From the NCBI GenBank assembly GCA_963793985.1, contig CAWCCG010000008.1, positions 25,707 through 89,706 of the forward strand: 64,000 nucleotides of DNA, given 5' to 3'. Source of the DNA: an uncultured Alphaproteobacteria bacterium (lineage in GTDB: Bacteria > Pseudomonadota > Alphaproteobacteria > Rhizobiales > Xanthobacteraceae). A model generated the notes under the pieces. That model ran no database searches and was not told where the DNA came from. It saw only the letters and a program-made list of their open reading frames with translations. The first letter of the stretch is position 1; each line of letters starts with the position of its first letter. The translations under genes and the position numbers were made by a program. Shown in pieces: positions 6,481 to 56,323 of the stretch.

Positions 6481-7227
6481 ATGGCCGAGTCGGCAAAGTA
6501 CGCGCGCAGAGACGTCCTCAAACAGATTGCGACAGTCGCCGGTTCGGCGCAGCTCGCGCCCGCGGCGGCGGCGACGGCAGCGACCGCCGGCGCGGTCGGC
6601 ATCGCTCGGGCCGAAACGCCGGCCGCGCCGACGCCCACGCTTCCAGCCGGATACCAGTCGTTGAGTCTCGACGAAGCCGCGTTCGTCGAGGCGCTCGTCA
6701 ATGTCATGTGCCCGGCGGATCACCTGACGCCGAGCGGCGTCGATTGCGGACTTGCGGTCTTCATGGATCGCCAGCTCGCCGGCGGTTTCGGCCAGGGCGA
6801 GCGGCTTTACGCGCACGGGCCGTGGAAGAAGGGCAAACCGCAATTCGGCTACCAGCTTCCGCTCACGCCGGAGCAGTTCTTCAAGGTCGGCGTCGCTGCC
6901 GCGAATGCGGCGTGTCGAAAGCAATCCGGCAAGAGCTTCGACGCACTGACGCCGGCCGAGGCCGACGCGTTTTTGGCGCAGCTTGCGGGCGGCAAGGTCA
7001 CCGATGAGCGGGTGCCGCTCGCGTCCTGGTTCAACGAGCTCGTGTATCCGCTGTTCGAGCAGGCCTGCTATGCCGACCCGATTTACGGCGGCAACAACGA
7101 CAAAGTTTTCTGGCGCATGATCGGCTATCCGGGGCTGCCGGCGACGCATCAGCGCGACATCGTCACCTATCGTGGAAAGCCCTACCCCGGCGCCAACGAT
7201 CCCAAATCGATCGCCGACTTCAGCTGA
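6481..7227 (+). CDS. Gluconate 2-dehydrogenase subunit 3 (gamma) family protein with a Tat-type signal
   Basis: Twin-arginine motif ARRDVLKQIATVAGSA. The body (LSLDEAAFVEALVNVMCPAD, ACYADPIYGGNNDKVFWRMIGYPG) is typical of the small subunit paired with GMC flavoproteins. Intact. Confidence 0.8.
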   Translation: MAESAKYARRDVLKQIATVAGSAQLAPAAAATAATAGAVGIARAETPAAPTPTLPAGYQSLSLDEAAFVEALVNVMCPADHLTPSGVDCGLAVFMDRQLAGGFGQGERLYAHGPWKKGKPQFGYQLPLTPEQFFKVGVAAANAACRKQSGKSFDALTPAEADAFLAQLAGGKVTDERVPLASWFNELVYPLFEQACYADPIYGGNNDKVFWRMIGYPGLPATHQRDIVTYRGKPYPGANDPKSIADFS

Positions 7228-7239
7228 GGAGAACCGCAA

Positions 7240-9009
7240 ATGGCCACCAAGCTGAACAAACGGACCGTCGTCATCGTCGGCGGAGGACTGACCGCGGCAC
7301 TCGTTGCGCGGCAGCTGACCGCCAAAGGCACCGATGTCCTCGTGCTCGAGCGCGGCGCCGACCGGCGCAATGCCGCCGCGGCGAAGCTTCCCAATCAGCG
7401 CGACGAGCTGCGCTGGGACATCCGCGGCGGGCTCGGGCAGGACTGGTCGATCGGAGACCTACACGATCCGCCACAACCCCAAGCGACGAAGCGCTGCCGG
7501 CACGCCGGCTCGCTGCGTTTCTGCCCGGCGACGGCGTGGGCGGCGCCGCAAGCCATTGGAACGGCTTCACCTGGCGATGGTCGGAGTATGATCCGACGCT
7601 GCGCACCCGCCTCGAGACGCGCTACGGCAAGCAGGCGATCCCCGCGGACATGCCGATCGCAGGACTGGGGCGTGACCTATGCGGAGATGGAGCCCTATCA
7701 CCATCTGTTCGAGAAGCTCTACGGCCTCTCCGGCAAGGCCGGCAACATCAAGGGCGCGATCAGCCCGGCGGCAATCCGTTCGAAGCGCCGCGGCGCGACG
7801 ACTATCCGCAGCCGCCGCTCGAACCCACCGAAGCGGGGCTGATCTTCAAGGCCGCCTGCGAGAAGCTCGGCTACAAGCCCTTCATCGCGCCGTCGGGCAA
7901 TTCATCCGGCACCTACACCAATCCGGACGGCATGAAGCTCGGCGCCTGCCAGTACTGCGGCCACTGCGAGAAGTTCATGTGCGAGGCGCAGGCGAAGGCG
8001 ACGCCGGAGACGCTGCTCTATCCGGTCCTGTTCGAGCGGCAAGAGCTTCGAGATGCGGCATGCACTGCCACGTGTTCGGCGTCGATTACGACAAGCAGGC
8101 CAAGCGGGCGACCGGCGTGCGCTACGTCGATCTGCTGACCGGCGAGGAGTTCGAGCAGCCGGCGGATGTCGTCGTGCTCGCCGCCTTCACGATGACCAAC
8201 ACGCGGCTCCTGCTGCTCGGCGGCATCGGCAAGCCCTACGATCCGGCTTCGCGGCGCCGGCGTGGTCGGCAAGAACTTCTGCTACCAGACCAACTCCGCG
8301 GTGAACGTGTTCATGAAGGATTGGTGGATCAATCCGTTCCTGGCGAGCGGCAGCACCGGCACCACGATCGACGAGTTCAACAACGACAACTTCGACCACA
8401 GCGGTCTCGGCTTCCTCGGCGGGGCGGGCATCAGCGCCAATCTCACCAATGGACGGCCGATCGGAAGCCGCCGGCTGCCGCCCGGCACGCCGCGCTGGGG
8501 CACCAAATGGAAACAGGCGAGCGCGGACTGGTACGCGCATTCCTTCACCATGCAGGCCCAGGGCTCGAGCTATCCGCATCGCGACAACTATCTCGATCTC
8601 GATCCCGACTATCAGGACGCTTATGGCCAGCCGTTGGTGCGGATGACGTTCGACTGGCGCGACAACGACATGAAGATGTCGGAGTACTGCACGCAAGAAG
8701 ATGGCCGAGATCGCCAAGGCGATGGACGCGACGATCGTCGGGCCGGCGGCGCCGCGCAAGAGCCCGTTCGACACCCGCGTCTATCAGAGCACGCACGTCA
8801 CCGGCGGCACGCCGATGGGGACCGATCCCGAAGACCAGCGTCGTCTCGCCAGCACCTGCAGCACTGGGACGCGCAGAACCTGTTCGTCGTCGGCGCTTCC
8901 GTCTATCCGCACAACGCCGGCTACAACCCGACCGGCGCTCCTCGCCGCGCTGGCGCTGCGGCTCGGCGACGATCTCACGAGCTACGTCGAACGGCCGCGG
9001 ATGCTTTGA
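7240..9009 (+). pseudogene. GMC-family FAD oxidoreductase (gluconate 2-dehydrogenase flavoprotein-like), multiply frameshifted
   Basis: Rossmann N-terminus VVIVGGGLTAALVARQLTAKGTDVLVLERG. Homologous segments continue in alternating frames: ETYTIRHNP, DEALPARRLAAFLPGDGVGGAASHWNG, QDWGVTYAEMEPYHHLFE, CQYCGHCEKFMCEA, VVLAAFTMTNTRLLLLGGIG, VVGKNFCYQ...RMTFDW, YQSTHVTGGTPMG, NLFVVGASVYPHNAGYNPTG. I count at least 9 frame changes by eye. Confidence 0.8.
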
Positions 9010-20787: not shown

Positions 20788-21910
20788 ATGCGTGATCTGC
20801 GACGTTCGATCGTTCTTTCCGCCGCCGCCATCGCCGCCTTCACCGCCATCGCTTACGGCGGTGCAGCCCGCGCTGTCGCTCGATCCGGACTTTGCCGCCA
20901 TCGAAGCGCAGGAGAACGCCGCCAACAGCAAGGCCGGCCCGCGCGTCGTGCCGGGCCGCGCGATCCCGGTGCCGGGCACCGTGAGCCCGCAACTGCAGGC
21001 GACGATCGCCGCGCCCTATCGCATCCCGGCATGGGACGCCGATCCGAAGAGCGCGGCCGAGTGGAAAGACCTCATCACCAGGCTCGCCGACGCCGGCAGC
21101 GCAGCGCGCCGCGAAGCGCGCGAGAAGCTCGGCGTCACCATGGAGCCGACGGTGATCGGCGGAGTGAAGGCTTTCATTCTGACGCCGAAGGAAATCCGGC
21201 CGGAGAACCGCAACCGCCTGCTGATCCACGTGCACGGCGGCGGCTACGTCTACGGTCCCGGCGAGGCGGGCACCGGCGAGGCCACGCTGATGGCCGCCTT
21301 TGGCGGCTACAAGGTGATCTCCATCGACTATCGCATGCCGCCCGACTTCCCCTACCCGGCGGCGATGGACGACGCCATGGCGGTGTGGCGCGAAGCGGTC
21401 AAGATGCAGAACCCGCGCAACATGGCGATCTTCGGCACCTCGACCGGCGGCGGCATGACGCTCGCCATGATCCTGCGCGCCAAGCAGGAAGGCCTGCCGC
21501 TTCCGGCCGCGATCGCGCCCGGCACGCCGTGGTCCGATCTCACCGAGACCGGCGACACCTACAAGACCAACGAGTGGCTCGACAACGTCCTCGTCAGCTA
21601 CAACGGCTATCTCGTCCACGCCGCGAAGCTTTACGCCGCCGGACACGACCTGAAGGACCCCCAGCTCTCGCCGATCTACGGCGACTTCACCGGCTTTCCG
21701 CCGGCGATCCTGACCAGCGGCACGCGCGACCTGTTCCTGAGCCTCACCGTGCTCACGCACCGCAAGCTTCGCCGCGCCGGCGTCGAAGCCGAGCTTCAGG
21801 TCTATGAGGGCATGTCGCACGCCCAGTACAATTTCGATGCCTTTGCGCCGGAGACCAAGGAGGTCTTCACCGAGATCGCGCGCTTCTTCGACCAGCACCT
21901 CGGCAAGTGA
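20788..21910 (+). pseudogene. Secreted alpha/beta hydrolase (esterase/lipase, HGGG-type), one frame change in the signal region
   Basis: The ATG at 20788 follows GAGGGAGG and gives MRDLRRSIVLSAAAIAAFTAIAYGG. A shift near 20865 leads into ORF 20792-21910. That ORF carries the HVHGGGYVYG oxyanion motif, the GTSTGGG nucleophile elbow, and later DLFL / H residues. Confidence 0.8.
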
Positions 21911-22071: not shown

Positions 22072-22110
22072 GGCGTGAGTTGACCGCAGCCGGCGATCAG
22101 TTCCGCCTTG

Positions 22111-22999
22111 TCACCGCGAAAACTGACGCAGCGTGAAAACATCCGCGATCGGCATCGCGTCGCTCTCGCGCTCGAGCCGGCACCAGTGGTCCACCCGGCC
22201 ATGCATCGCGACGCCGCCCGCGCAGCACGACGGCGACACGGTCGCCGGGCTCGATGTTGCCGTGATAGACGATGTCGCGCCGGCGCGTCGTCGTGCGCGG
22301 GTCGAGCGGCCGGAAGAACGCCCATTCGGCACGGTCGACGAAGGCCTGGAAGCTCGAGAAATAGAGAAAATCCGCGCCGTTGAAATCCTGTGCCGGGCAG
22401 GGATCGATCACGAGCCGATCGAGCACCGGTGCGTCGGCGCGCACGAAGCCGAGGTGCTCCTTCCAACTGTCGCGGCGCAGCGCCGCCACCGTCTCCTCGA
22501 TAATCCGCGAATTCTCGCGACGACACGACCGGCGGCAGACCCGGCACCTCGACGCGGGCGATCGAGCGGTTGCGTCCCTGCCTCCATCCGCTTGACGAAC
22601 AGCGAGGTCATGACGACCTCGCCGAGCGGACGACCGCGCACGCGCGACCGCGTGCACGCTCATGAACCGGGTGCGCGAAATCCGCGTCAGCCGGGAGCGG
22701 AATTCGAGCGCATCGTGTTCGCGCGCGGCATCGAAGCGCGCCTCGCGCACGGTGACGGCGATGAACGCCGCGTAGACCGGATCGCCGTCGTCGTCGCGGA
22801 AATCCGGCACCGCGCGCCCCGCGGCTTGCGCGAGCAGGAACCAATGACGGTGCCCGCATTCGCGCAGCAGCCAGGTCTCGGAGAGGCCGCCGAGGCAGAG
22901 ATGGGGCATGCCGAGCACGATCTCGTCCGACAGCGCCGGCGCCACCGGGCCGCCGCCGAGGATGCGATCGATCTCGAGGTAACCGAGCGGGATGTTCAT
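22111..22999 (-). pseudogene. Putative double hot-dog-fold protein (Pnap_2097 / LnmK-like), frameshifted
   Basis: MNIPLGYLEIDRILGGGPVAPALSDEIVLGMPHLCLGGLSETWLLRECGHRHWFLLAQAAG matches my memory of the Pnap_2097-type family. The middle is out of frame. The C-terminal part is DFNGADFLYFSSFQAFVDRAEWAFF...IVYHGNIEPGDRVAVVLRG. The tail in ORF 22111-22332 is AMHGRVDHWCRLERESD. Confidence 0.5.
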
Positions 23000-23001
23000 G
23001 G

Positions 23002-24304
23002 CTACGATCCGATCGCGGCTTCGTTGAGCGCGGCTTCGACGCTGGGCCCGGTTCATGCCGACCCGCGCCTCGATGTGCTCGGCGAGATATTCGGCGTCGC
23101 GCGCCACGCCGGAAAAGCGTCCCGAGCCCCAGGTGTAGAGCCAGGGCAGCCCGAGAAAGTAGACGCCCGGCAGGGGGGTCACGCCGCGGACATGTGCGGG
23201 TTGCCCGCGGCCGTTGAAGACCGGCAGGTCGAGCCAGCTGTAGTCGGTGCGAAAGCCGATGCACCAGACGATCGAGGTGATGCCGGCCGCGCGATAGTCG
23301 AGCTCCTCGCGTTCGTGGGGCGGCGCCCATACCGGCGTGTAGCGGGCCTCCGTCGGCGCCTCGATGCCGCGCTTGGCGATGAAGCCGTCGATGCTGGTCT
23401 TGATGCTCTCCGAGACCTGGTCGGCCTGATCGAGACATTGCGCGAGGTCGTCGTCGCAGATCAGCCGGTCGCCGGCGACGTCGAGCAGGCGGCCGTAGAG
23501 CTCCATGCCCTCGCGCGCGCGCTGCCGCAGGTCGATGTCGCGGCCGCCGTCGCGGCCGGTGACGTAGTGATTGGTCTTGTCGCGCACGCCTTCGCGCAGC
23601 GGATGCTCGTGCACCGGCAGGTCGTAGTAGCCCATGAGGTGCAGCCACTCGACCACGTCCTTGCCGCGATAGCGCCGCGACACCCGCGGCGCGTCGCCGA
23701 CGCAGAGATGCACCTTGCGGCCGGCGAGATGCAGGTCCTCGGCGATCTGGCAGCCCGATTGCCCGCTGCCCACCACCAGCACGGCGCCGGGCGGAAGCTG
23801 GTCCGGATTGCGGTATTCGGAGGAATTGATCTGCACGAGGTCGGGATCGAGCCGTTCGGCGCAGCGCGGGATCACCGGAATCTGGTAGCCGCCCGCCGCG
23901 ATCACCACCTGGTCGGCGAGATAGAGGCCTTCGGTGGTCTCGAGCGTGAAGCCGTGCTGCGGATTGCTGCGCAGGCCCTTCACCGCGACGCCTTCGCGCA
24001 GCGGCGGCTCGAACGACGCGACGAAGCCGTCGATGTAGTCGACGATCTCGTCGCGCAGCATGAAGCCGTAGGGGTCGGCGCCCTGGTAGGGAAAGCCCGG
24101 CAGCTGGCACTGCCAGTTCGGCGTCACCAGGCAGAACGTGTCCCAGCGCTCGGCGCGCCAGGCGTGGCCGGCGCGCTTCTTCTCGAACACGACGTGATCG
24201 ATGCCGCTGCGCTTGAGATACCAGCTGATCGAGAGGCCGGCCTGGCCGCCGCCGATCACCGCGACCGAAAGGTGCGCGAGCGGAGCGGGCTGGGAAGCGT
24301 TCAT
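23002..24304 (-). CDS. MSMEG_0569-family flavin-dependent oxidoreductase (Nit1C flavoprotein); no in-frame stop as sequenced
   Basis: The ATG at 24304 follows GGAGGC; an alternative ATG at 24322 forms an ATGA overlap with the upstream stop. Dinucleotide folds VAVIGGGQAGLSISWYL and VLVVGSGQSGCQIAEDL. The frame reads straight into the next gene. A one-base shift near 23050 would end it at the TAG at 23002-23004, two nt before that gene's ATG. Confidence 0.8.
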
Positions 24305-24318
24305 GGGAGAGCCTCCAT

Positions 24319-24607
24319 TCATTCGTCGAAAGCGTCGACCGCGACCCGCGCGGCGGGATCGCCGATAAACGCGCTCGCCATCGTCTCGATGCGGGCGAGC
24401 TGGGCGAGCGCGCGGCTGCACGGCATGCCGTACTTCGCCCTCACCCGATCGCTCGCGATGCCGAGCGCGGTGCGGCTGCGCGCCAGGAAATCGGTGAGCG
24501 CATAGTCGGTGCCGACCGCGAAGTAGTCCTTGATCACCAGCGACGGCGAATAGCAGCTCTCGGAGCGTGCCGTCGGGCCAGCGGATGTGAAAGCGCATTT
24601 CAGGCAT
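24319..24607 (-). pseudogene. MSMEG_0570-family nitrogen-starvation response protein (Nit1C Hp2), one frame change
   Basis: MPEMRFHIRWPDGTL, a shift near 24540, then VIKDYFAVGTDYALTDFLARSRTALGIASDRVRAKYGMPCSRALAQLARIE. The start overlaps the upstream stop by 8 nt. Confidence 0.65.
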
Positions 24608-25764
24608 GGGCGGCCTCGGCGAGCGCTTCGTAGGCCGGAAGATGCGCATGCGCCGACGCGGCTCCAGTCGTGGCGCGCCGCGACCGCGAAGCCGCGCGCA
24701 ACGAGGGCGTCGCGGCCCGGCTCGTTCCAGCGCGGCCATCATCGCTGCGCGATCGAGGCGGCGTCGCTGGGATCGCACCAGGCGACGTCGCCGTCGTCGA
24801 GATATTCGGTGAACGGCGGCGATGCGCGAGGTCACCACCGGCACGCCGCTCGCCATCGCCTCCAGCACCACGAGGCCGAAGCCCTCCTTCACCGAGGGAA
24901 ACACCAGCGCATCGGCGGCGCGATAGAGCGCCGGCATCAGCGCCTGGGGCAGCGGGCCGGTGCGGATCACCGCGCGCTCCGGCAAGCCGCTTGCGGCCAG
25001 CGCCGCCGCGAACTCGGCCTGGTAGGCGTCATGGTCGAGCAGCGAGGCGCCGCCGGCGATCACCAGGCACGCCGACGGATGCCGTCGCATGGACGATGCG
25101 AAAGGCTTCGAGGATGGCAATCGTGTTCTTGCGCTTTTCGACGCCGCCGATCGCGAGGAACACACGGGCGCCGGCCGGCAGCTTCAGCAGCGCCCGCAGC
25201 GCGGCATCGCTGTCGTCCGGCACCGGCGAAAACCGCTCGGTGTCGACGCCGTTGCCGACGAGGTGCGGAACACGGCCGAACTCCTTCTGCGAGCCGGTCG
25301 CGCCACAGGCGGCTCACCACGAACAGACGATCGGCCGACACGATCGCCCGCGTCTGCAGCGCCGAGAGCCGCGGATCGGCAAAGCTGTCGACGTGATGCA
25401 CGGTGCGGGCAAAGCCGCGGATCAGGCCGCGCTCCCTCAGCGTCGCCAGCGCATTCCCCGAAATTCCGTCCTGCGCGTGCCAGACGTCGAAGCGCCGATG
25501 GCCTGCGACTTCGAAATGTCGGACGTAGTCGGCGATGCGGGTCTCGACCATGGCGGTGACGTCGCGCCCGACCGGCGATGCCGCGACGCTCACGGTCGCG
25601 CAGCGTGTCGGCCGGAAGAATCCGGCGCCGCTCGCATCCGGCGCATGGACCGTCGCCTCGTGGCCGAGCCGGCACAGCGCGTCGCCGAGCTCGAGCGCGT
25701 GGACGACGCCGCCTCGCGGATTGGTGGAATGCGCGAGGATGGCGATGCGCAGGCGCGGCTTCAT
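24600..25764 (-). pseudogene. MSMEG_0565-family group-1 glycosyltransferase, frameshifted
   Basis: MKPRLRIAILAHSTNPRGGVVHALELGDAL at the N-terminus. Then EFGRVPHLVGNGVDTERF and VFLAIGGVEKRKN in another frame. Then LVIAGGASLLDHDAY...ALVFPSVKEGFGLVVLEAMASGVPVV (the GT1 E-x7-E region). The tail AYEALAEAAHA is in yet another frame. At least 3 frame changes. ATGA overlap with the upstream gene at 25761-25764. Confidence 0.8.
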
Positions 25765-26756
25765 GCGAGCACCCCCGCGGCGACGAGGCGCGCCTTGCCG
25801 CAGCCGATCAGCGGCTCGCGCTCGAAGTCCCAGATGGTCTCCGTCGCGCGCCCGTCGGTGATGGCGACACGGCTTCCGCGCGCGATCGCGCCGATCTCGG
25901 CCGCGGCGATGCCGCGCGCGGCAAAGCGGCCGATCACGGCATCGACCTTCGCCGGCGCGACGGCGAGGATGTAGCCGTAGCTCGGAAACGTCTGCAGCCA
26001 GCGCTCGAGCGCGACGCCGTCCGGGCGCGGCACCGCGGTGACGTCGATGGTCGCGGCCACGCCCGAGCATTCCGCCAGCATCATCGCGGTGCCGACGATG
26101 CCGCCCTGGGAAATGTCCTTGGCCGCACAGGCAAGACCCGCTTCGGCGATCGCCGGCAGCACTTCGAGATCGCCGCGCAGCCGCGCCGGCGGCGCGTCGG
26201 TCGCGGCTTCCCAGTTGGAGAACGGCTCGCGATAGCGGCCGCGCAGGTCGATCGCCGCCACCAGCCGGTCGCCGGGCCTGGCGTCGAACGAGGTCAGCAG
26301 CCGCCTGGCGCGGCCGAGGATCGCGACCGAGAGCTGGCCGCGGTCGGTGCGCGTGTTGGTGTGGCCGCCGACCACCGGCACGCCGAAGGCGCGCGAGGCG
26401 GCGCGCATGCCCGCCAGCACCGGCTCGGCATCCGCATCGCTCGCCGCCCACACCGCATCGACCACCGCGATCGGCCGCCCGCCCATCGCCGCCACGTCGG
26501 AGATATTGACCATGACGCCGCACCAGCCGGCGAACCAGGGATCGCCGGCGACGAATTCGTTCATGAAGCCTTCGATGGCGAGCAGCAGGTAACCGTCGCC
26601 GTCCGGGATCGCCGCGCAATCGTCGCCCACGGGAACGGCGCTGTCGCCCGACACGCCGAGCCGCGCCACCGCCGCCGCGATGTCGCGCTTGGCCGCGACG
26701 CCGCGGCTCGCCCGCAGCGTCGCGGCGATGCGGTCGATGGCGACAGTGCCGAGCAT
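25761..26756 (-). CDS. Sll0787-family AIR synthase-like protein
   Basis: MLGTVAIDRIAATLRASRG, GDDCAAIPDGDGYLLLAIEGF, NISDVAAMGGRPIAVVD, VVGGHTN, KDISQGGIVGTAMMLAE (PurM/ThiL-like fold motifs). Intact. Confidence 0.8.
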   Translation of the reverse strand: MLGTVAIDRIAATLRASRGVAAKRDIAAAVARLGVSGDSAVPVGDDCAAIPDGDGYLLLAIEGFMNEFVAGDPWFAGWCGVMVNISDVAAMGGRPIAVVDAVWAASDADAEPVLAGMRAASRAFGVPVVGGHTNTRTDRGQLSVAILGRARRLLTSFDARPGDRLVAAIDLRGRYREPFSNWEAATDAPPARLRGDLEVLPAIAEAGLACAAKDISQGGIVGTAMMLAECSGVAATIDVTAVPRPDGVALERWLQTFPSYGYILAVAPAKVDAVIGRFAARGIAAAEIGAIARGSRVAITDGRATETIWDFEREPLIGCGKARLVAAGVLA

Positions 26757-26766
26757 CGCGCCCTCC

Positions 26767-27330
26767 TTACGCCGCCCGCCGGGGCAGCGACAGGAAGCCG
26801 GTCTCCGGATCGGCGATCGGCGGGTAGTAGGCGAGATCGGCCTGCATGAAGTGATGCGGCCGGCCGCGCAGCTCGATCTCCTCGATGGTGCGCCAGTGCA
26901 GGCGCCGGAACAGCAGCGCGTTCTGGCTCTGCACATGGGCATAGAAGCGGCGGCAGCCGCGGGCATGGGCCGAGCACACGGCGAGGCGGATCAGCGCGGC
27001 GCCGAGCGCGCCGATGCGGCGATAGTCGGCGGCGACGGCGAGGCGCGAACCCCACCACACGCCAGGCTCGGCCTCGTGAATGCGCACGGTGCCGACCACG
27101 TCGTGCGGCGCGACGCCGAGCGAGGAGATCGCGACCAGCGGGATCGCGATGGCGTCGATGTCGTCGCGATCGTCGCCCGCGAAGATGCCCTGCTCCTCGC
27201 AGAACACCTGCCGCCGCAGCGCCGCGGCCTCGCGGCGCTCCCAGGCTTCGGTCGCGAACTTCACCCGGTATTCGGCCGGCAGGAACACGGGGAACGGATC
27301 GAAGATCATGCGACGCCCCTGCTGCGGCAT
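26767..27330 (-). CDS. MSMEG_0567/Sll0786-family GNAT N-acetyltransferase
   Basis: Intact, 187 aa. ALRRQVFCEEQGIF, GTVRIHE, RRIGALGAALIRLAVCSAHARGC (acetyl-CoA binding Q/R-x-x-G-x-G/A region). Confidence 0.8.
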   Translation of the reverse strand: MPQQGRRMIFDPFPVFLPAEYRVKFATEAWERREAAALRRQVFCEEQGIFAGDDRDDIDAIAIPLVAISSLGVAPHDVVGTVRIHEAEPGVWWGSRLAVAADYRRIGALGAALIRLAVCSAHARGCRRFYAHVQSQNALLFRRLHWRTIEEIELRGRPHHFMQADLAYYPPIADPETGFLSLPRRAA

Positions 27331-28453
27331 CTCCCGGTACCGCGCTCATAGGTCGAGAGCGCCGAGCAGGCGCCGCATTTGCCGCAGCCGGCCTTGATGT
27401 CGGTCGCGCGCAGGCCGGCGGCGCGCAGCATCTGCGCGAGCGGCCGCAGGATCTCGTGCATGAATGCGGGCTGCGGCGGCGGATGGCTTTCGAGCGGCGT
27501 TCCGGAGATCGGCACGAACGGCACCACGAAGGGATAGACGCCGAGCGCGATCAGCTTCTCGCTGTCGCGAGGATCGCCTCCCTGGTGTCGCCGAGGCCGG
27601 CGAGGATGTAGGTCGACACCTGCCCGCGCCCGAACACCGGAACCGCGGCCGCGAAGGCCTCGAAATAGCGATCGAGCGGAAACCTGCGCCTTGCCGGGCA
27701 TGATGCGGGCGCGCACCTCGCGGCGTCACGGCCTCGAGATGCATGCCGAGCGCATCGATGCCGGCGTCCTTCATGCGGGCGAACCAGGCGTCGTCGTCGG
27801 GCGGCTCGCACTGGCCCTGGATCGGCAGCGCGACGGCGGCCTTCACCGCCGCGGCGCTCTCGGCGAGGATCGCGGCGCCGCGGTCGCGGCCGGGCGGCGT
27901 GCCGGTGGTCATCACCATGTGGGAGACGCCGTCGAGCTCGACCGCGGCCTTGGCGACCTCGGCGAGCTGCGCCGGCGTCTTGCGCTCGATGGTGCGGCCG
28001 GCGGCGAGCGACTGGCCGATGGCGCAGAACTGGCAGGTCTTGGTGCGGCTCTGATAGCGGATGCAGGTCTGCAGCACGGTGGTGGCGAGCACGTCGCGGC
28101 TGTGCAGCACCGCGATCTTCCAATAGGGAATGCCGTCGGCGGTCACGCAGATCGTAGAAGCGCGGGCGCACCGGAAAGCTCACCTCGCCGAGCATCACGC
28201 CGTCGCGGCTGACCCGGCTGCGGCCGAGTGCGTCCGGCTTGTCGACGAAATACGGGCTCTCGAAGGCCGGCGCGGTGTGGACCGGCACCATGACGGTCAT
28301 GCCGTCGATGGTCATCGCCTTGTGGTCGGACGGGCCGGCGCCGCCGCGGCGGCTCTCGTGGCCGGCCTTGGGATCAACGAGCCGGACTCCGTAGGACTGC
28401 AACTCGTTGATCAGCTGCGCGGTCGGCATGGCTGTCGGCATGGTCGGCTTCAT
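27306..28453 (-). pseudogene. MSMEG_0568-family radical SAM protein, multiply frameshifted
   Basis: [27 protein letters not shown]. Then [18 protein letters not shown] (Cys cluster) and [44 protein letters not shown]. Then [44 protein letters not shown] and [23 protein letters not shown]...[10 protein letters not shown] in alternating frames. At least 4 changes. Confidence 0.75.
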
Positions 28454-29424
28454 CGGATGCACTCCCGATCGGGGGCGAGGCGGATGCGGCGGCGCGTGTT
28501 TCCATCGGGCGCGCCGGGCGATTGTCGAGAACGAGGTGGAGAAGTTCGGGGCGGGCGTAGTGGCCGACCGAGTCCATCATCCGCTTGCGCTTGACGATGA
28601 GGCCCATGTCGAGATCGGCGATGAGGATGCCCTCCCCTTGGGTCAGCGGCGGCACCACATGCGCGCCTTCCGGCGACACGATCGCGGTCATGCAGCCGCC
28701 GCGCAGCGCCTTGCGCAGCTTCTCGTCGGGCGAGATTTTCGCGATCTGCTCTTCGGTCAGCCAGCCGGTGGCGTTGACGACGAAGCAGCCGCTTTCGAGC
28801 GCGTGGTGACGGATCGTCACCTCGATCTGGTCGGCGAAGATCGGCCCCACCATGGAGCCCGGAAACTGGGCGACATGGATTTCCTCGTGCTGCGCCATCA
28901 GGGCGTAGCGGGCGAGCGGATTGTAGTGCTCCCAGCAGGCGAGCGCGCCGATGCGCCCGGCGGCGGTGTCGACCACCGACGAGGCCGGCGCCGTCGCCCT
29001 GCCCCCAGATCATCCGCTCGTGAAACGTCGGCGTGATCTTGCGGCGCTTGAGGACGAGGCGGCCGTCGGCATCGAAGATGAGCTGGGCGTTGTAGAGCGA
29101 GCCGTGGTCGCGCTCGTTGACGCCGAGCGCGACGACGATGCCGTGGCGGCGCGCCGCGCTCGCGACCGCCTCCGTCACCGGCCCCGGAACCACCACGGCA
29201 TTGTCGTAGAGCCGGATGTGCTCGGCGCCGGTGAGAACGGGCGGGTAGACGAAGGAGAAATACGGATACCAGGGCACGAAGGTCTCGGGAAACACCACGA
29301 GCTTCGCGCCCTTCTCCGCGGCCTCGGCGATGGCGCCGAGGACCTTGGCGACCGTGCCGCTGCCGCTGTCGAGATCGGGCGCGATCTGCACCGCCGCGAC
29401 ACGGACGCTCGCCTTCTCCGCCAT
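28374..29424 (-). pseudogene. Nitrilase (Nit6803 / Nit1C-type), frameshifted
   Basis: [25 protein letters not shown] (catalytic Glu), [20 protein letters not shown] shift near 28960 precedes [14 protein letters not shown] (catalytic Cys) and AQFPGS. The 3' end is ambiguous. The current frame stops at 28374. The N-terminal frame stops at 28450, in an ATGA overlap with the radical SAM start at 28453. Confidence 0.85.
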
Positions 29425-29466
29425 CTCTCGCCTCCTCCGGCGCCGGCCGGCTCGTGCACGCCCGGA

Positions 29467-29948
29467 TCAGACGGTCCAGGTGTGGAGCATGAAGGCATTG
29501 TCCTTGCGGTGCAGGAGGATGAGGTCGAGCACGTCGAGCGGATTGATCGGACGAATGCCCGGAATGAGCGACGGCTCGCCATGCCCGTACAGCGCCTGCA
29601 GCGCAAAGCGACAGGCATAGACCTTGCCACCCTCGCCCATGAACTTGGTCAGCTGGTTGTTGAAGTTCTGATGACCGGGAAATGCTTCGTCGCCGAGTTT
29701 CGGGAAGCCGCGCTGGACGCCGAGCGTCACGCCCGGACCGTAGAGCAGCACCGAGGTCTCGAAGCCCTTGCGCTGCAGGCGAGTGCCTGCAGCATGTTGA
29801 CGAGGCCGATCGATCCTTCGAAGGCGACGGTGTGGAAGGTGACGAGCGCCTTTTCGCCCGGTGCGGCCTTTACGTCCTCGAAGACCTTCTCTTCGTAGTC
29901 GACCAGGAAATCACCTTTCTGGTGAGCAGGCGCGGTCACGGCAGGCAT
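29467..29948 (-). pseudogene. MSMEG_0572/Sll0783-family nitrogen-starvation response protein (Nit1C Hp1), one frame change
   Basis: The ATG at 29948 lies 5 nt after [61 protein letters not shown], a shift near 29770, then [55 protein letters not shown]. Confidence 0.7.
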
Positions 29949-30032
29949 GTTGTCCTCCTAGCGGGCTAGCGGGGGCGTGAGAGATCGATCCTTCGATCGC
30001 GACTTCGATCGCGACTTGGCGCTCGGAGATTT

Positions 30033-30049
30033 TGCAAAGGCCATGCCAA
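30033..30049 (-). promoter_or_regulatory. Sigma-54 (RpoN) -24/-12 promoter candidate for the Nit1C operon
   Basis: The minus strand reads TTGGCATGGCCTTTGCA. That is TGGCAT-N5-TTGCA against the consensus TGGCAC-N5-TTGCW. It lies about 85 nt upstream of the first ATG at 29948. Confidence 0.55.
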
Positions 30050-30365
30050 TGGATGGAATGCATATGCATTCATCATAACCATTCATTTTGCGATCAATTA
30101 TGCAGTCAATTGAAAATGGATTGCCGATTTCAGCGCCGCTCGCGTCGCCAGCGCGGCGACCAAAAAGGCACCGGAATGCTGCGGTTTTATGCAGTTTGTA
30201 CGGGTTGACTCGCACTGAAACGGCGCGACAGAATTGCTTCCCTCGAACGCGATTTCCTCTCGAAATCGACCGCGCAGCAATATACAGTCAATCGCAGTTT
30301 CGTTCCCGGTTGACCGGGCCGCGCATTCTCGAAATGCCGACGTTCGGTCGGAGCACGCTCGATAC

Positions 30366-31749
30366 ATGCAGGACTGGACGCCGAACCTCGCCTCGAGCGA
30401 CAAGCCGCGCTATCTCGCCATCGCCGACGCCATCGCCGACGACATTCGCAGCGGCCGTCTCGCCGCTTCCGATCGCCTGCCGCCGCAGCGCAAGCTCGCG
30501 CGACGCCTCGACATCGATTTCACCACCGTCGCGCGCGGCTATCTCGAGGCGCAGAAGCGCGGCCTGATCGAATCCCATGTCGGGCGCGGCACCTTCGTGC
30601 GCAAATCGGCGCGGCGCGTTCACAGCTCCGATGGCGCGCCATCCGGAGATCGTCGACCTCTCGATGAACCTGCCGCCGGAGCCCGACGATCCGGAGCTGC
30701 TCGACCGCATGCAGGACGGCCTCGAGGCGGTCGGACGCGATCTCGTCTCGCTGATGCGCTACCAGGGTTTCGGCGGCGTGCAGGCCGACAAGGACGCCGC
30801 TTCGAACTGGCTGAGCCGCCGCGCGCTGGTGCCGCCGCAGGATCGGCTGTTCATCGCGCCCGGCGCGCACTCCGCGCTGCTCGGCATCTTCGGCCTCGTC
30901 GCCAAATCCGGCGACGTGATCCTCTCGGAGGACCTCACCTATCCCGGCACCCGCTCGATCGCGGCGCAACTCGGCCTCAAGCTCGTCGGGCTGCCGATGG
31001 ACGATGAAGGCATCGATGCCGACGCCTTTGCCGACGCGTGCGCGCGGCTCGCGCCCAAGGCCCTCTATCTCAATCCGACGCTGCTCAATCCGACGACGCA
31101 TACGATCTCGGAGCGGCGACGGATCGCCATCGCCGAGGTCGCCCGCCGGTTCGGCGTGCCGATCATCGAGGACGATCCCTACGGCTTTCTCCCCGTGGGC
31201 GGCCCGCCGCCGTTCGCGGCGGTCGCGCCGGAGCTCACCTGGCATGTCGCCGGGCTCGCCAAATGCCTCGGCGCCGGCCTGCGCGTCGCCTATGTGGTGG
31301 CGCCGGACGTGCGCTCCGGCTGGCTGTTCGCGGCCGCGGTCCGCACCGCGACGGTGATGGCCTCGCCGCTGACCGTCGCGCTGGCGACACGCTGGATCGC
31401 CGACGGCACCGGCGACGCGCTGCTCGCCGCGGTGCGCCGGGAATCGATCGAGCGCCAGCGCCTCGCCGCGGCGATCCTGCCGACGAGCGGCATCCGCACC
31501 GATCCGATCGGCTTTCATTTGTGGGTGTCGCTGCCGCCGCCATGGACGCGTTCCGCCTTCGTCGGCCACATGCGCTCGACCGGCATCGGCGTCGTCGCGA
31601 GCGACGCCTTCGCGACGCAGGGCACGCCGCCCGAGGCGGTGCGGGTCTGCCTCGGCGGTCCGCCCGACCGCGCCGCGGTGCGCAACGCGCTCGAATTCAT
31701 GGCGCACGCACTCGCGGAATCGCCGGCGATCGCATCGACGTTCCTCTGA
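30366..31749 (+). pseudogene. MocR-type GntR regulator with a PLP aminotransferase-like domain, one frame change
   Basis: wHTH: PRYLAIADAIADDIRSGRLAASDRLPPQRKLARRLDIDFTTVARGYLEAQKRGLIESHVGRGTFV. A shift near 30620 precedes the fold-type I domain: DLSMNLPPEP, IAPGAHSALLGIFGL, YLNPTLLNPTTHTIS, IIEDDPYGF, GLAKCLGAGLRVAY. Divergent from the Nit1C operon. Confidence 0.85.
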
Positions 31750-31854: not shown

Positions 31855-33151
31855 ATGACCACAGACGTCAAGACTGCCGGCACCGAGGCGCCAGCCGCGG
31901 CACAGCAGCCGGAGCCGCCGGCAAAGGCCGAGCCGCCGAAGTTCTCCAGCCTATCAGATGTTCCTGGTGGCGCTGCTCGCCTTTCTGCAGTTCTCCATCA
32001 TCCTCGACTTCATGATCATCTCGCCGCTCGGCGCGATCATCATGCCGGACCTCGACATCACCCCGCAGCGGTTCGGCGAGATCGTGTCGGCCTATGCCTT
32101 CAGCGCCGGCGCCTCGAGCCTGCTCGCCGCCGGCTTCGCCGACCGCTTCGACCGCAAGAAGTTCCTGCTGTTCTTCTATTGCGGCTTCGTCATCGGCACC
32201 GCGCTGTGCGCGCTGGCGATCGAGCTATCCGCAGCTTCTGGTCGCGCGCGTGGTCACCGGCATCTTCGGCGGCGTGATCGGCTCGGTGGTTCTCGCGATC
32301 GTCACCGATCTGTTTCCGCTCGCGATGCGCGGACGCGTGATGGGCGTCGTGCAGACCGCGTTCTCGGCGAGCCAGGTGCTCGGCATCCCCGCCGGCATCT
32401 ACATCGCCAATCTCTGGAACTGGCACGTCACGTTCCTCGTGATCGTCCTCGTCGCGGTGCCGGTCGGCGTGATCATCGCGTTCTTCATGAAGCCGGTGGC
32501 GGGCCATCTCGCCCTGAAGCAGGAAGCGAGCCCCTGGCGGCATCTCACCGGCACCATCTTCGTGCCGCGATACGTGCTGTCCTTCGCCACCACGGCCCTG
32601 CTCGTCACCGGCGGCTACATGCTGATGCCGTTCGGCAGCGTGTTCACCGTGAACAACCTCGGCATCGCGCTCGCCGACCTGCCGACCATCTATCTCGTGT
32701 CGGGCGTCTTCACCATCTTCACCGGCCCCCTGGTCGGGCAGGCGCGGCGATGCGTTCGGCAAATTCCCGACCTTCGTTTTCGGCTGCGCGCTCACCATTC
32801 TGATGGTGCTCATCTACACGCACCTCGGCCGGGTGTCGCTGTTCACCGTCATCCTCGTCACCGTGCTGATGTTCGTCGGCATTTTTTCGCGCATGATCCC
32901 GTCGCAGGCGCTCATGTCCGCGATCCCCGAAATCACCAAGCGCGGCTCGTTCAACGCGGTCGGCGCATCGGTGCAGCAATTCTCCGGCGGAATCGCCTCG
33001 GTGATCGCCGGGCTCATCGTCGCGCAGGGCCCGACGGGAGAGCTCCAGCGCTTCGACGTGTTGGGCTACATCGTCATCTCGACGACGCTTGGTGTCTCTC
33101 GTTCTGATGTACTTCATCAACAAGGTGGTGAACGAGGGCTCTCGCTCGTGA
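31855..33151 (+). pseudogene. MFS transporter, frameshifted
   Basis: FLVALLAFLQFSIILDFMIISPLGAIIMP, GFADRFDRKKFLL (MFS loop 2-3 motif), LVARVVTGIFGGVIGSVVLAIVTDLFP, then further helices in other frames. Frame changes near 31950, 32225 and 32745, plus a last one near 33090-33100. The stop is at 33149-33151 in the last frame. Confidence 0.75.
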
Positions 33152-54709: not shown

Positions 54710-56323
54710 ATGCCACGTCTGTTGGCCCTCATTGCCGCGATCATCCTGACGGCGAGGCGGCGCGGGCGCTGCGCTCGCGCAAGGCACGCTGCGCATCGGC
54801 ATGACGGCGTCGGACATTCCGCTGACGACCGGCCAGACCGACAACGGCGGCGAGGGCATGCGCTTCCTCGGCTATACGGTCTACGACGCGCTCATCAACT
54901 GGGACCTGAGCTCGCGCGCGACAAGGCGTCCGACATCGTCCCCGGGCTCGCCGACCTCGTGGGCGGTCGATGAAGCCGACAAGACGCGCTGGATCGTTCA
55001 AGCTGCGCCCCGGCGTGACCTTCCATGACGGCAGCGACTTCACCGCCGACAGTCGGCGGTCTGGAACCTCGACAAGCTCCTCAACGACAGAGTCGCCGCA
55101 ATACGACCCGCGCCAATCGGCGACAGGGGCGCACGCGCATTCCGGCCGTCGCGTCGTACCGCGCCGTCGACGACTATGACGGTCGAGATCATCACCAAGG
55201 CGCCGGACGCGACGCTGCCCTATCAGATCGCCTGGGTCATGATGTCGTCGCCGGCGCAGTTCGAGAAGGTCGGCAGGAACTGGGATGCCTTCGCCAAGAC
55301 GCCGTCCGGCACCGGCCCGTGGAAGCTCGACCGCCTTCGTGCCGCGCGAGCGCGCCGAGATGGTGCCGAACCCCGACTATTGGGACAAGAAGCGGGTGCC
55401 GAAGCTCGACAAGATGGTGCTGATCCCGCTGCCCGAGGCGAATGCGCGGATCGCGGCGCTGCGCGCCGGCCAGGTCGACTGGATCGAGGCGCCGCCGCCC
55501 GATGCCGTGACCGTCGCTCACCAAGGCGCCGGATACAGTCATCATCACCAATGCGTATCCGCACAACTGGACCTGGCACCTGTCGCGCGTCGCCGGCTCG
55601 CCGTGGAACGACATCCGCGTGCGCAAGGCCGCCAATCTCGCGATCGACCGCGAGGGCATGAAGGAATTGCTGTCCGGCCTCATGATCCCGGCGAAGGGCT
55701 TCTTCCCGCCGGGCCATCAATGGTTCGGCAATCCGAAGTTCAACCTGACCTACGATCCGGCGCAGGCGAAGAAGCTGCTGGCGGAAGCCGGTTACGGCCC
55801 GAACAAGCCGCTCACCACCAAGATCCTGATCTCGGCGTCAGGCTCGGGCCAGATGCAGCCGTTGCCGATGAACGAGTTCGTCCAGCAGAATCTCGCCGAG
55901 GTCGGCATCAAGGTCGACTTCGAGGTGGTCGAGTGGAACACCCTCATCAACATCTGGCGGGCCGGCGCCAAGCATGACAGCTCCCGCGGCGCCACCGGCA
56001 TGAACTACACCTACTTCATCCAGGACCCCTTCACCGCGCTCATCCGGCACGTCCAATGCGACTTCGCGCCGCCGGCCGGGACCAATTGGGGCTACTATTG
56101 CGATCCCGAGATGGACAAGCTGCTCGGCGAGGTGCGCGCCGCCTTCGATCCTGCCGAGCAGACCAAGGTGCTGCAGAAGGTCCACGAGAAATACGTCGAC
56201 GACGCGCTGTTCCTGATGGTGACCCACGACGTCAATCCGCGCGCCATGAGCCCGAAGGTGAAAGGCTTCGTGCAGGCGCAGAACTGGTTCCAGGATTTTT
56301 CGCCGATCTGGATGGCGAAGTGA
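54710..56323 (+). pseudogene. ABC substrate-binding protein, family 5 (paralog), frameshifted in its first half
   Basis: [60 protein letters not shown], and VRKAANLAIDREG onward, which is intact in ORF 55619-56323. About 5-6 frame changes before 55620. Confidence 0.8.

Follow-up and report, generated by a model that had tools for sequence, protein, structure and literature searches.

A nine-gene Nit1C-type nitrilase cluster with a divergent MocR-like regulator in an uncultured alphaproteobacterium

We analyzed a 64,000-nucleotide stretch of contig CAWCCG010000008.1 (hereafter, the window) from an uncultured alphaproteobacterium and focused on a set of genes that surrounds a nitrilase on the minus strand, from position 29948 down to position 22111. 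This cluster is a genuine Nit1C operon, with the order nitB-nitC-nitD-nitE-nitF-glycosyltransferase-nitG-nitH and an additional ninth gene of the Pnap_2097/LnmK-like type, and is most likely intact in the organism. In the raw listing of open reading frames (ORFs), most of the cluster genes are split over two or more frames. A preliminary description, made from the letters alone, had recognized a complete cluster of the Nit1C (MSMEG_0565-0572/Sll0783-0787) type, and every family model for this set is passed, with gene content and minus-strand order as described there. The eight genes that it listed are all present, but the unit is larger and consists of nine genes together with a divergent MocR-like regulator and a sigma-54 promoter.

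Gene content and architecture of the cluster

Each gene of the cluster has a curated model. We took the curated NCBIfam values as cut-offs, scoring the broken genes after removal of single-base insertions and deletions (indels) and the GNAT and AIR-synthase-like genes uncorrected. Checked in this way against the hidden Markov models (HMMs) of the MSMEG_0565-0572 set, as had been proposed, all of the proteins score above their cut-offs after frame correction (Table 1). The raw ORF pieces already match TIGR04044, TIGR04048, TIGR04043, TIGR04045, TIGR04049, TIGR04047, and TIGR04046; the pieces of the nitB-like gene give 85 and 169 bits to the first of these models, and the two halves of nitC give 247 and 304 bits to the second. 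No member of the set is sub-threshold, and the nitrilase falls within its family (572.6 bits). The corrected nitrilase is 70% identical to Nit6803 (PDB 3WUY; 509.7 bits), and in the alignment to this structure the FPETF, KRRKITP, and ACWEH motifs around the catalytic Glu, Lys, and Cys all match up. These three residues are the ones named as catalytic for the Nit1C nitrilase in PMC7815647. The cluster is one more copy of a widespread operon that can be annotated automatically.

Beyond the family models, the radical S-adenosylmethionine (SAM) protein NitD has Cys133, Cys143, and Cys146 in a CX9CX2C arrangement, as well as Cys359, Cys362, and Cys365 in a C-terminal CX2CX2C arrangement, and matches the Pfam family Radical_SAM. 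NitF matches Pfam AIRS and AIRS_C and has distant PDB matches to ThiL, HypE, PurL, and SelD, with HypE and ThiL nearest. The flavoprotein NitH is matched in part by Pfam Pyr_redox_3 and Lys_Orn_oxgnase, and its relatives in the PDB are the flavin monooxygenases 4USR, 4USQ, and 4A9W. In the same PDB sequence search, the radical SAM and 0570 proteins had no match, and the 0572 protein had one at chance level only. Secondary family matches, all far under their cut-offs, connect the glycosyltransferase to MshA/BshA, the flavoprotein to YpdA, and the radical SAM protein to LipS2.

Table 1. Features of the cluster, its control region, and the neighboring regulator. Scores are given with the curated cut-off in parentheses where there is one; indel positions are approximate.
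Feature	Position	Strand	Family model and score, or remark	Single-base indels
MocR-type regulator (GntR winged helix-turn-helix and pyridoxal phosphate (PLP) aminotransferase fold)	30366..31749	+	NF052286 EhuR, 432.4 bits, full length	1: insertion ~30628
Divergent control region, 417 bp	29949..30365		between nitB-like gene and regulator; candidate operator sites	
ATTGACTG boxes	30103-30110 and 30285-30292		only two copies in the window; invariant in six relatives	
13-nt tandem repeat ATGAATGNNTATG, two copies	30061-30086	-	adjoins downstream ATTGACTG copy	
Sigma-54 (-24/-12) type promoter element TGGCATGGCCTTTGCA	30033..30048	-	3' end 84 nt upstream of nitB-like ATG	
nitB-like, MSMEG_0572/Sll0783 family (160 aa)	29467..29948	-	TIGR04044, 288.5 bits (109.85)	1: deletion ~29781-29783
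nitC, Nit6803-family nitrilase (349 aa)	28374..29424	-	TIGR04048, 572.6 bits (502.6)	1: insertion ~28977-28979, just upstream of catalytic Cys motif
nitD, MSMEG_0568-family radical SAM protein	27306..28462 (start uncertain, 28462 to 28429)	-	TIGR04043, 614.8 bits (303.7)	4: insertions ~28146-28149, ~27719-27720, ~27676-27679; deletion ~27560-27564
nitE, MSMEG_0567/Sll0786-family GNAT N-acetyltransferase, intact	26767..27309	-	TIGR04045, 243 bits (68.45)	0
nitF, sll0787-family AIR-synthase-like protein (PurM superfamily), intact	25761..26756	-	TIGR04049, 479.6 bits (321.3)	0
MSMEG_0565-family GT4 glycosyltransferase	24600..25764	-	TIGR04047, 500.7 bits (259.85)	6: insertions ~25286, 25084, 24816, 24723, 24662; deletion ~24748
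nitG-like, MSMEG_0570 family (95 aa)	24319..24607	-	TIGR04042, 131.5 bits (79.85)	1: insertion ~24564
nitH, MSMEG_0569-family flavin-dependent oxidoreductase (class B flavin monooxygenase-like)	23002..24304	-	TIGR04046, 669 bits (498.35)	1: insertion ~23037-23039
Pnap_2097-family, LnmK-like protein (~292 aa)	22111..22999	-	TIGR04099, 339.8 bits (125)	4: insertions ~22641, 22571-22579, 22492-22500, 22201-22209

The flavoprotein ORF lacks an in-frame stop, as had been observed, because its one insertion lies about 35 nt before the TAG at 23004-23002 and shifts the reading into the frame of the next gene. The last 0.9 kb, over which the flavoprotein had been taken to extend, is instead a separate ninth gene that the preliminary description missed. 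The resulting 1022-aa run-on ORF (22097-25165) holds a full Pnap_2097/LnmK-like match besides the flavoprotein, and the ATG of the ninth gene (22999) sits 2 nt past the flavoprotein stop. After four corrections, the product also scores 298.6 bits against the LnmK model TIGR04098, for which the cut-off is 100. Its pairwise match to the LnmK structures is marginal (E = 0.007), and an LnmK-like activity is therefore not implied for this protein.

To place the cluster among its relatives, we used 80 loci obtained by a flavoprotein scan of species-representative genomes. The nearest of these belong to uncultured Alphaproteobacteria and to metagenome-assembled genomes (MAGs) of Xanthobacteraceae, with flavoproteins up to 92% identical at the amino acid level and none identical. 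The closest relative is L081 (Ga0209006_10012608, a JGI metagenome contig), which is 91.6% identical in nucleotides over 7.65 kb and has intact genes; another, L002, carries all nine genes intact. The gene order of the window recurs in 17 of the 80 loci, 5 more add the ninth gene, and this is the commonest architecture. The glycosyltransferase (TIGR04047) lies between the AIR-synthase-like gene and the 0570 gene, which is the eight-gene variant reported for Burkholderia and Rubrivivax by Podar 2005 (PMC1199592), so that the proposed comparison of gene order bears out the identification. A Pnap_2097-like gene is found in 15 of 76 assessable loci, each time inside or adjoining the cluster, and follows the flavoprotein in 11 of them and stands between the AIR-synthase-like gene and the flavoprotein in the other 4. 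Two insertion points of this gene in one cluster, as read from the gene arrangements, would argue for a functional link.

Several loci (L022, L034, L043, L064, and L069) have the Pnap_2097/LnmK-like gene directly after the AIR-synthase-like gene, about 7-9 kb into the locus. Carriers of this arrangement are MAGs of Polyangia/Myxococcales, one uncultured proteobacterial MAG (L034), and a plasmid of Methylocystis iwaonis (L161, 12230-13156). The RefSeq record of the latter plasmid already names these gene families and tags the genes with "biosynthetic process."

The genes are co-linear on one strand and tightly packed, with overlaps at 27309-27306, 25764-25761, and 24607-24600 and with spacers of 2-42 nt. 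The largest of these distances, 42 nt, separates the end of the nitB-like gene, which is directly upstream, from the nitrilase ATG. Three overlaps had been put forward as signs of translational coupling. Two can be read directly and are kept in L001 and L002: the ATGA at 25764-25761, where the AIR-synthase-like stop meets the glycosyltransferase start, and the 8-nt overlap ATGCCTGA at 24607-24600, where the glycosyltransferase stop meets the 0570 start. The third, an ATGA at 24322-24319, is present in the sequence but is in frame with the flavoprotein only by way of an extra T at ~24308 that is specific to the window; in the relatives, the ATG of this motif is out of frame with the flavoprotein. 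The real flavoprotein start is the ATG at 24304, preceded by GGAGG, and by this comparison one of the three claimed overlaps is the product of an inserted base. A fourth overlap had not been listed, namely the ATGA at 27309-27306 that joins the radical SAM stop to the GNAT start, and L002 has the same 4-nt overlap. Upstream of it, the nitrilase continues about 45 aa past the family model, and this tail overlaps the radical SAM start by about 55-90 nt in another frame (28374-28462), as it likewise does in L002 and L081.

Synteny with the relatives spans positions 22124-31749 and ends there. The flanks, a convergent alpha/beta hydrolase gene (20792-21910) and a broken major facilitator superfamily (MFS) transporter gene (31958-33107), are not conserved. 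The core of the cluster (24001-28000) is the most GC-rich part of the window, with a GC content of 0.705-0.728 compared with 0.61-0.66 at 1-6 kb and 12-16 kb. A GC-rich core and synteny that ends exactly at the cluster borders fit the horizontal mobility that has been described for Nit1C. Plasmids carry Nit6803-family nitrilases as well, with 528 records, of which Klebsiella accounts for 373 and Escherichia for 30, so that genes of the Nit1C type are frequent on the plasmids of enterobacteria. Two contigs of a single MAG (MFD05580.bin.2.85; L009 and L010) each carry a full regulator and Nit1C locus with flavoproteins 80-81% identical to that of the window, so that one genome may hold two copies or the bin may be mixed.

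Frame breaks in the cluster and across the window

We placed the indels by alignment to L001, L002, and five more relatives and by frameshift-aware protein-to-DNA alignment guided by the L002 proteins. Eighteen single-base indels fall in seven of the nine genes, and one more falls in the neighboring regulator. The GNAT and AIR-synthase-like genes are intact and the other six genes of the original list are broken, just as had been described, with 14 indels among those six. Over the 7.65 kb aligned with L081, the single-base differences of the window comprise 16 insertions and 3 deletions. Once the indels are removed, no in-frame stop is left, and there are no nonsense codons. Most of the indels occur in none of seven other relatives. 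They lie mostly outside homopolymers, and the inserted bases (five G, five T, three C, and three A) are spread over all four letters in DNA of ~70% GC. An explanation by homopolymer-type errors was rejected from these contexts.

The breaks are not confined to the cluster. A three-periodic Markov frame tracker, built as an HMM, was used to count stop-free changes of frame on the same strand across 52.8 kb of predicted coding sequence. Over the whole window it recorded 58 switches, 51 of the insertion type and 7 not, evenly spread at 4-11 per 8-kb bin, as compared with 0-0.34 switches per kb in eleven control loci. The tracker caught 9 of the 18 known events in the cluster, a sensitivity of ~50%. 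The breaks thus number ~2 per kb within the cluster; for the window, the minimum is 1.1 per kb, and the true figure is probably also ~2 per kb. Pfam searches with stop-free ORF pieces outside the cluster found domains split between frames in the same manner, namely SBP_bac_5 in an ABC transporter substrate-binding protein (55285-56323) and MFS_1 in the MFS transporter gene next to the regulator. The most fragmented stretch of the window is at 6668-9005 on the plus strand, where the genes for a gluconate 2-dehydrogenase subunit 3 and, behind it, a GMC-oxidoreductase-like protein are cut into about 10 frame segments and match Pfam (Gluconate_2-dh3 and GMC_oxred_C) by fragments only.

In the relatives L081 and L084, each gene is in one frame and aligns end to end with the corrected window protein, at 95-97% amino acid identity for the 0572 protein, the nitrilase, the radical SAM protein, and the flavoprotein. 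The ratio of nonsynonymous to synonymous substitution rates (dN/dS) between the window and L002 is 0.137, similar to the values for intact relatives (0.117 for L001 and 0.184 for L006, each against L002). Since this signal extends over the entire window and the genes of the closest relative are unbroken, we judge the indels to be technical, and very probably they are mistakes in the recorded sequence, for instance consensus errors left uncorrected in a long-read assembly. As a property of the whole window with this most likely origin, the frame breaks say nothing about the biology of the cluster, and a cluster-specific pseudogenization was rejected since frameshifts have the same density and direction outside it. 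The public MAG contig that holds L001 (CAWCZY010000008.1, MFD01716.bin.2.88) likewise contains frameshifts of the insertion type, seven in number, at positions other than those of the window (~8172, 9174, 9304, 9392, 9594, 11903, and 11994), in the AIR-synthase-like, glycosyltransferase, and Pnap_2097-like genes. Such noise therefore exists in assemblies of these organisms. For the window, with ~1-2 single-base insertions per kb throughout, any broken, fused, or stop-less ORF is a suspect artefact until the reads are checked.

The breaks could instead be real if the cluster and most of the genome were decaying to pseudogenes in a recently host-restricted or mutator lineage. Six of the eight originally listed genes, the ninth gene, and the regulator are all broken, as such decay would have it, and the window has a modest excess of unique amino acid changes over L001 (140 versus 75). 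The number and even spread of the breaks, the dN/dS value, and the lack of nonsense codons all speak against it, however, and gene order is fully kept relative to L081, L084, and L002, with no gene-sized deletions seen. Bacterial mutation is biased toward deletions, and the bias here is the opposite, toward insertions, at 16:3 in the cluster and 51:7 in the window; the near-uniform composition of the inserted bases is likewise at odds with mutation in GC-rich DNA. We consider real decay improbable. That the indels are genuine and bypassed during expression, through programmed frameshifting, transcriptional slippage, or RNA editing, is extremely unlikely, as nothing positive favors it, the sites have no slippery or homopolymeric context and are conserved in no relative, and dozens of events lie in unrelated genes across the window.

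Control region and MocR-like regulator

The control region between the nitB-like gene and the divergent regulator gene is ~60% identical overall across six relatives, yet the motif blocks within it are invariant. It contains an element, TGGCATGGCCTTTGCA, that matches the sigma-54 consensus (TGGCAC-N5-TTGCA, with GG at -24 and GC at -12) and is the sole such match in the window, where 0.07 would be expected. In 51 of 92 loci, the 300 nt upstream of the 0572 gene contain a match that deviates at no more than one position, as opposed to 4 of 450 random windows. Equivalents of the element are seen in L001-L012, L013, L026, L032, L040, L046, L052, and others, many of them non-cyanobacterial. The ATTGACTG boxes and the 13-nt repeats are, from their position and conservation, candidate operators of the MocR-like regulator. 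A simple scan for sigma-70 promoters and terminators gave nothing above background for the operon, and its sole terminator-like match (22159-22144) falls within the ninth gene. Rfam and transfer RNA scans of the whole window were empty, with no known riboswitch or leader RNA family represented upstream of the operon.

The regulator matches the EhuR model NF052286 over its full length, at 432.4 bits, which is below the cut-off of 480. We therefore class it as a MocR-like protein that is nearest to the EhuR subfamily and not as an EhuR equivalog; the next-best MocR subfamily, YczR, scores 176 bits. The gene is syntenic in L001-L012, and a regulator of this kind, divergent from the 0572 gene and at most 900 nt from it, is present in 41 of 82 assessable loci, in records from alpha-, beta-, and gammaproteobacteria. 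Cultured relatives include Methylobrevis pamukkalensis (L013) and a Herbaspirillum (L023) in which regulator and operon are laid out alike. We also looked for an AAA+ enhancer-binding activator by a six-frame search of the window for GAFTGA, ELFGHE, and Walker-type signatures and found none. A cognate activator, for example NtrC, may be encoded elsewhere. Our literature search found no described link of a MocR protein or an LnmK-like protein to Nit1C, and the MocR protein in PMC8567248 controls a separate cio-nit4 cluster.

Proposed function and comparison with known Nit1C systems

The hydrolysis of a nitrile to an acid and ammonia by the nitrilase NitC is the last chemically defined step of the system, and the cluster is strongly induced by nitrogen limitation according to the literature. 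For the window copy, we propose that under nitrogen limitation sigma-54 RNA polymerase and an unlinked NtrC-type activator would fire the promoter, which the MocR-like protein would adjust on binding an amine ligand that forms an aldimine with its PLP. The enzymes would then form one pathway that ends in the release of ammonia from a nitrile by NitC.

A different view of the product, which is compatible with this scheme, comes from the "gpr" work on Mycobacterium smegmatis: the cluster would make a small redox-active metabolite, with the nitrilase as one step in its synthesis. There, the cluster increases NADPH/NADP and makes the cells resistant to peroxide (PMC6039565), and in Synechocystis, mutation of sll0783 affects the NADPH-dependent accumulation of polyhydroxybutyrate (PMC3901256). 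A biosynthetic role would also agree with the RefSeq tag and with the ninth gene, LnmK-like acyltransferase/decarboxylases being typical of biosynthetic pathways. MshA and BshA, which the glycosyltransferase weakly resembles, make low-molecular-weight thiols; the flavoprotein is weakly like the bacillithiol disulfide reductase YpdA and the radical SAM protein weakly like the lipoyl synthase LipS2, but all of these secondary matches are far under the cut-offs. Pseudomonas nitB and nitC mutants, moreover, have a defect that is specific to cyanide and nitriles as sources of nitrogen (PMC5939895). The glycosyltransferase is missing in Pseudomonas (PMC7815647) and the Pnap_2097 gene is limited to the minority of loci given above, and this patchy occurrence among clusters excludes both from the core chemistry. 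The literature searched reports no product. We regard a redox-active metabolite as possible but less likely than not.

Within the ammonia-releasing pathway that we favor, one route can be sketched by analogy. The GNAT enzyme would N-acetylate an amino compound, the flavin monooxygenase-like NitH would N-oxygenate the acetylated compound, and the PurM/HypE-like NitF would dehydrate the product to a nitrile with ATP, to be hydrolyzed by NitC with release of ammonia. HypE itself turns a carboxamide into a cyano group by dehydration. Tailoring or carrying the substrate would fall to the radical SAM protein, NitB, NitG, the glycosyltransferase, and the LnmK-like protein. This particular sequence of steps is unlikely to be right as a whole, and we offer it tentatively. 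Rather more speculative, and quite unlikely, is the reading that the proteobacterial Nit1C subtype of the window would convert a primary-amine compound to an intracellular nitrile for hydrolysis by these same four steps, with the PLP domain of the regulator sensing an N-acetylated ligand like a diamino acid. This subtype is marked by an EhuR-like MocR regulator of its own, by a sigma-54 promoter, and by the LnmK-like gene in a minority of loci. On this reading, the ligand of the regulator would directly identify the Nit1C substrate that has long been sought.

Several points weigh against the overall picture of an intact, regulated pathway operon. The technical origin of the indels is inferred and not observed in reads, and their insertion bias and lack of homopolymer context are unlike the usual error profile of current nanopore assemblies. 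The excess of lineage-specific amino acid changes over L001 (140 against 75) could stem from a slight relaxation of selection or from added substitution noise. A sigma-54 promoter requires an AAA+ activator, and none was found next to the cluster or by the motif search of the window; MocR proteins do not belong to this class, which leaves the regulatory model incomplete. The proposed chemistry draws on superfamily analogies only and does not account for the radical SAM protein, NitB, or NitG, and no experiment assigns roles to NitB, NitD, NitE, NitF, NitG, NitH, the glycosyltransferase, or the Pnap_2097 protein.

The preliminary description linked the cluster to nitrogen starvation and cyanide assimilation, and both links are correct (PMC5939895, PMC6039565). 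Its statement that the substrate and the roles of the non-nitrilase genes are undefined agrees with PMC7815647 (2021) and PMC11049912 (2024), and our literature search found no later paper that resolves the product or chemistry of Nit1C. NitB and NitG are listed as proteins of unknown function in the 2024 genomic survey (PMC11049912), and purified Nit11764 favors cinnamonitrile and fumaronitrile, while its physiological role "remains unclear" (PMC7815647). The window copy makes the chemistry of Nit1C no easier to test. The relatives provide modest leads in the MocR/EhuR-like neighbor, the conserved sigma-54 promoter, and the LnmK-like gene at two positions. As the regulator adjoins about half of the related clusters, its ligand is a possible shortcut to the pathway substrate.

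Among the characterized systems, the Pseudomonas clusters (P. pseudoalcaligenes/oleovorans CECT5344 and P. fluorescens NCIMB 11764) share the nitB-nitH families and their order with the window. They consist of nitBCDEFGH and the sigma-54 activator NitA, and mutants in nitA, nitB, and nitC can use neither cyanide nor aliphatic nitriles; the presumed substrate that NitC hydrolyzes is a 2-hydroxynitrile, which arises chemically from cyanide and oxaloacetate (PMC5939895). Sigma-54 control is a common element, represented by NitA in Pseudomonas and by the conserved -24/-12 promoter in the window. Unlike Pseudomonas, however, the window has a MocR-type neighbor and, by the motif search, no NitA-type AAA+ activator beside the cluster or elsewhere. 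The Pseudomonas clusters also lack the glycosyltransferase (PMC7815647) and the LnmK-like gene, both of which the window has.

The gpr operon of M. smegmatis, MSMEG_0565-0572, contains the same eight families, including the glycosyltransferase, and is the source of the NCBIfam names. Its gene order presumably differs, with the GNAT and AIR-synthase-like genes fused. Under nitrogen starvation, GlnR raises the expression of the eight genes more than 100-fold, acting at a GlnR box upstream of the operon, and no ninth LnmK-like gene is described there (PMC6039565). The Sll0783, Sll0786, and sll0787 families of Synechocystis sll0783-sll0787 are all present in the window, along with the nitrilase related to Nit6803. 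In the cyanobacterial loci examined, the flavoprotein gene is divergent at the opposite end of the cluster and the sigma-54 motif is absent. Cyanobacteria are not known to have sigma-54, and the cluster responds to NtcA in these organisms. The regulator, for its part, resembles the EhuR/EnuR-type MocR proteins of ectoine catabolism, being a full-length match and likewise divergent from its presumed target operon, but it is under the model's cut-off and no ectoine genes are nearby.

The clusters of Burkholderia and Rubrivivax are the variant that the window reproduces. Nit1C was defined as seven conserved genes in this order, and in these two genera a glycosyltransferase gene lies between ORF5 and ORF6 (PMC1199592). 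The window agrees with this arrangement in its seven core genes and in their order on one strand, with the glycosyltransferase inserted at the same place, between the AIR-synthase-like gene (ORF5) and the gene for the small protein (ORF6), and with the flavoprotein last. To this arrangement the window copy adds the Pnap_2097/LnmK-like gene and the divergent MocR-like regulator, and it does so in an alphaproteobacterial lineage known only from metagenomes.

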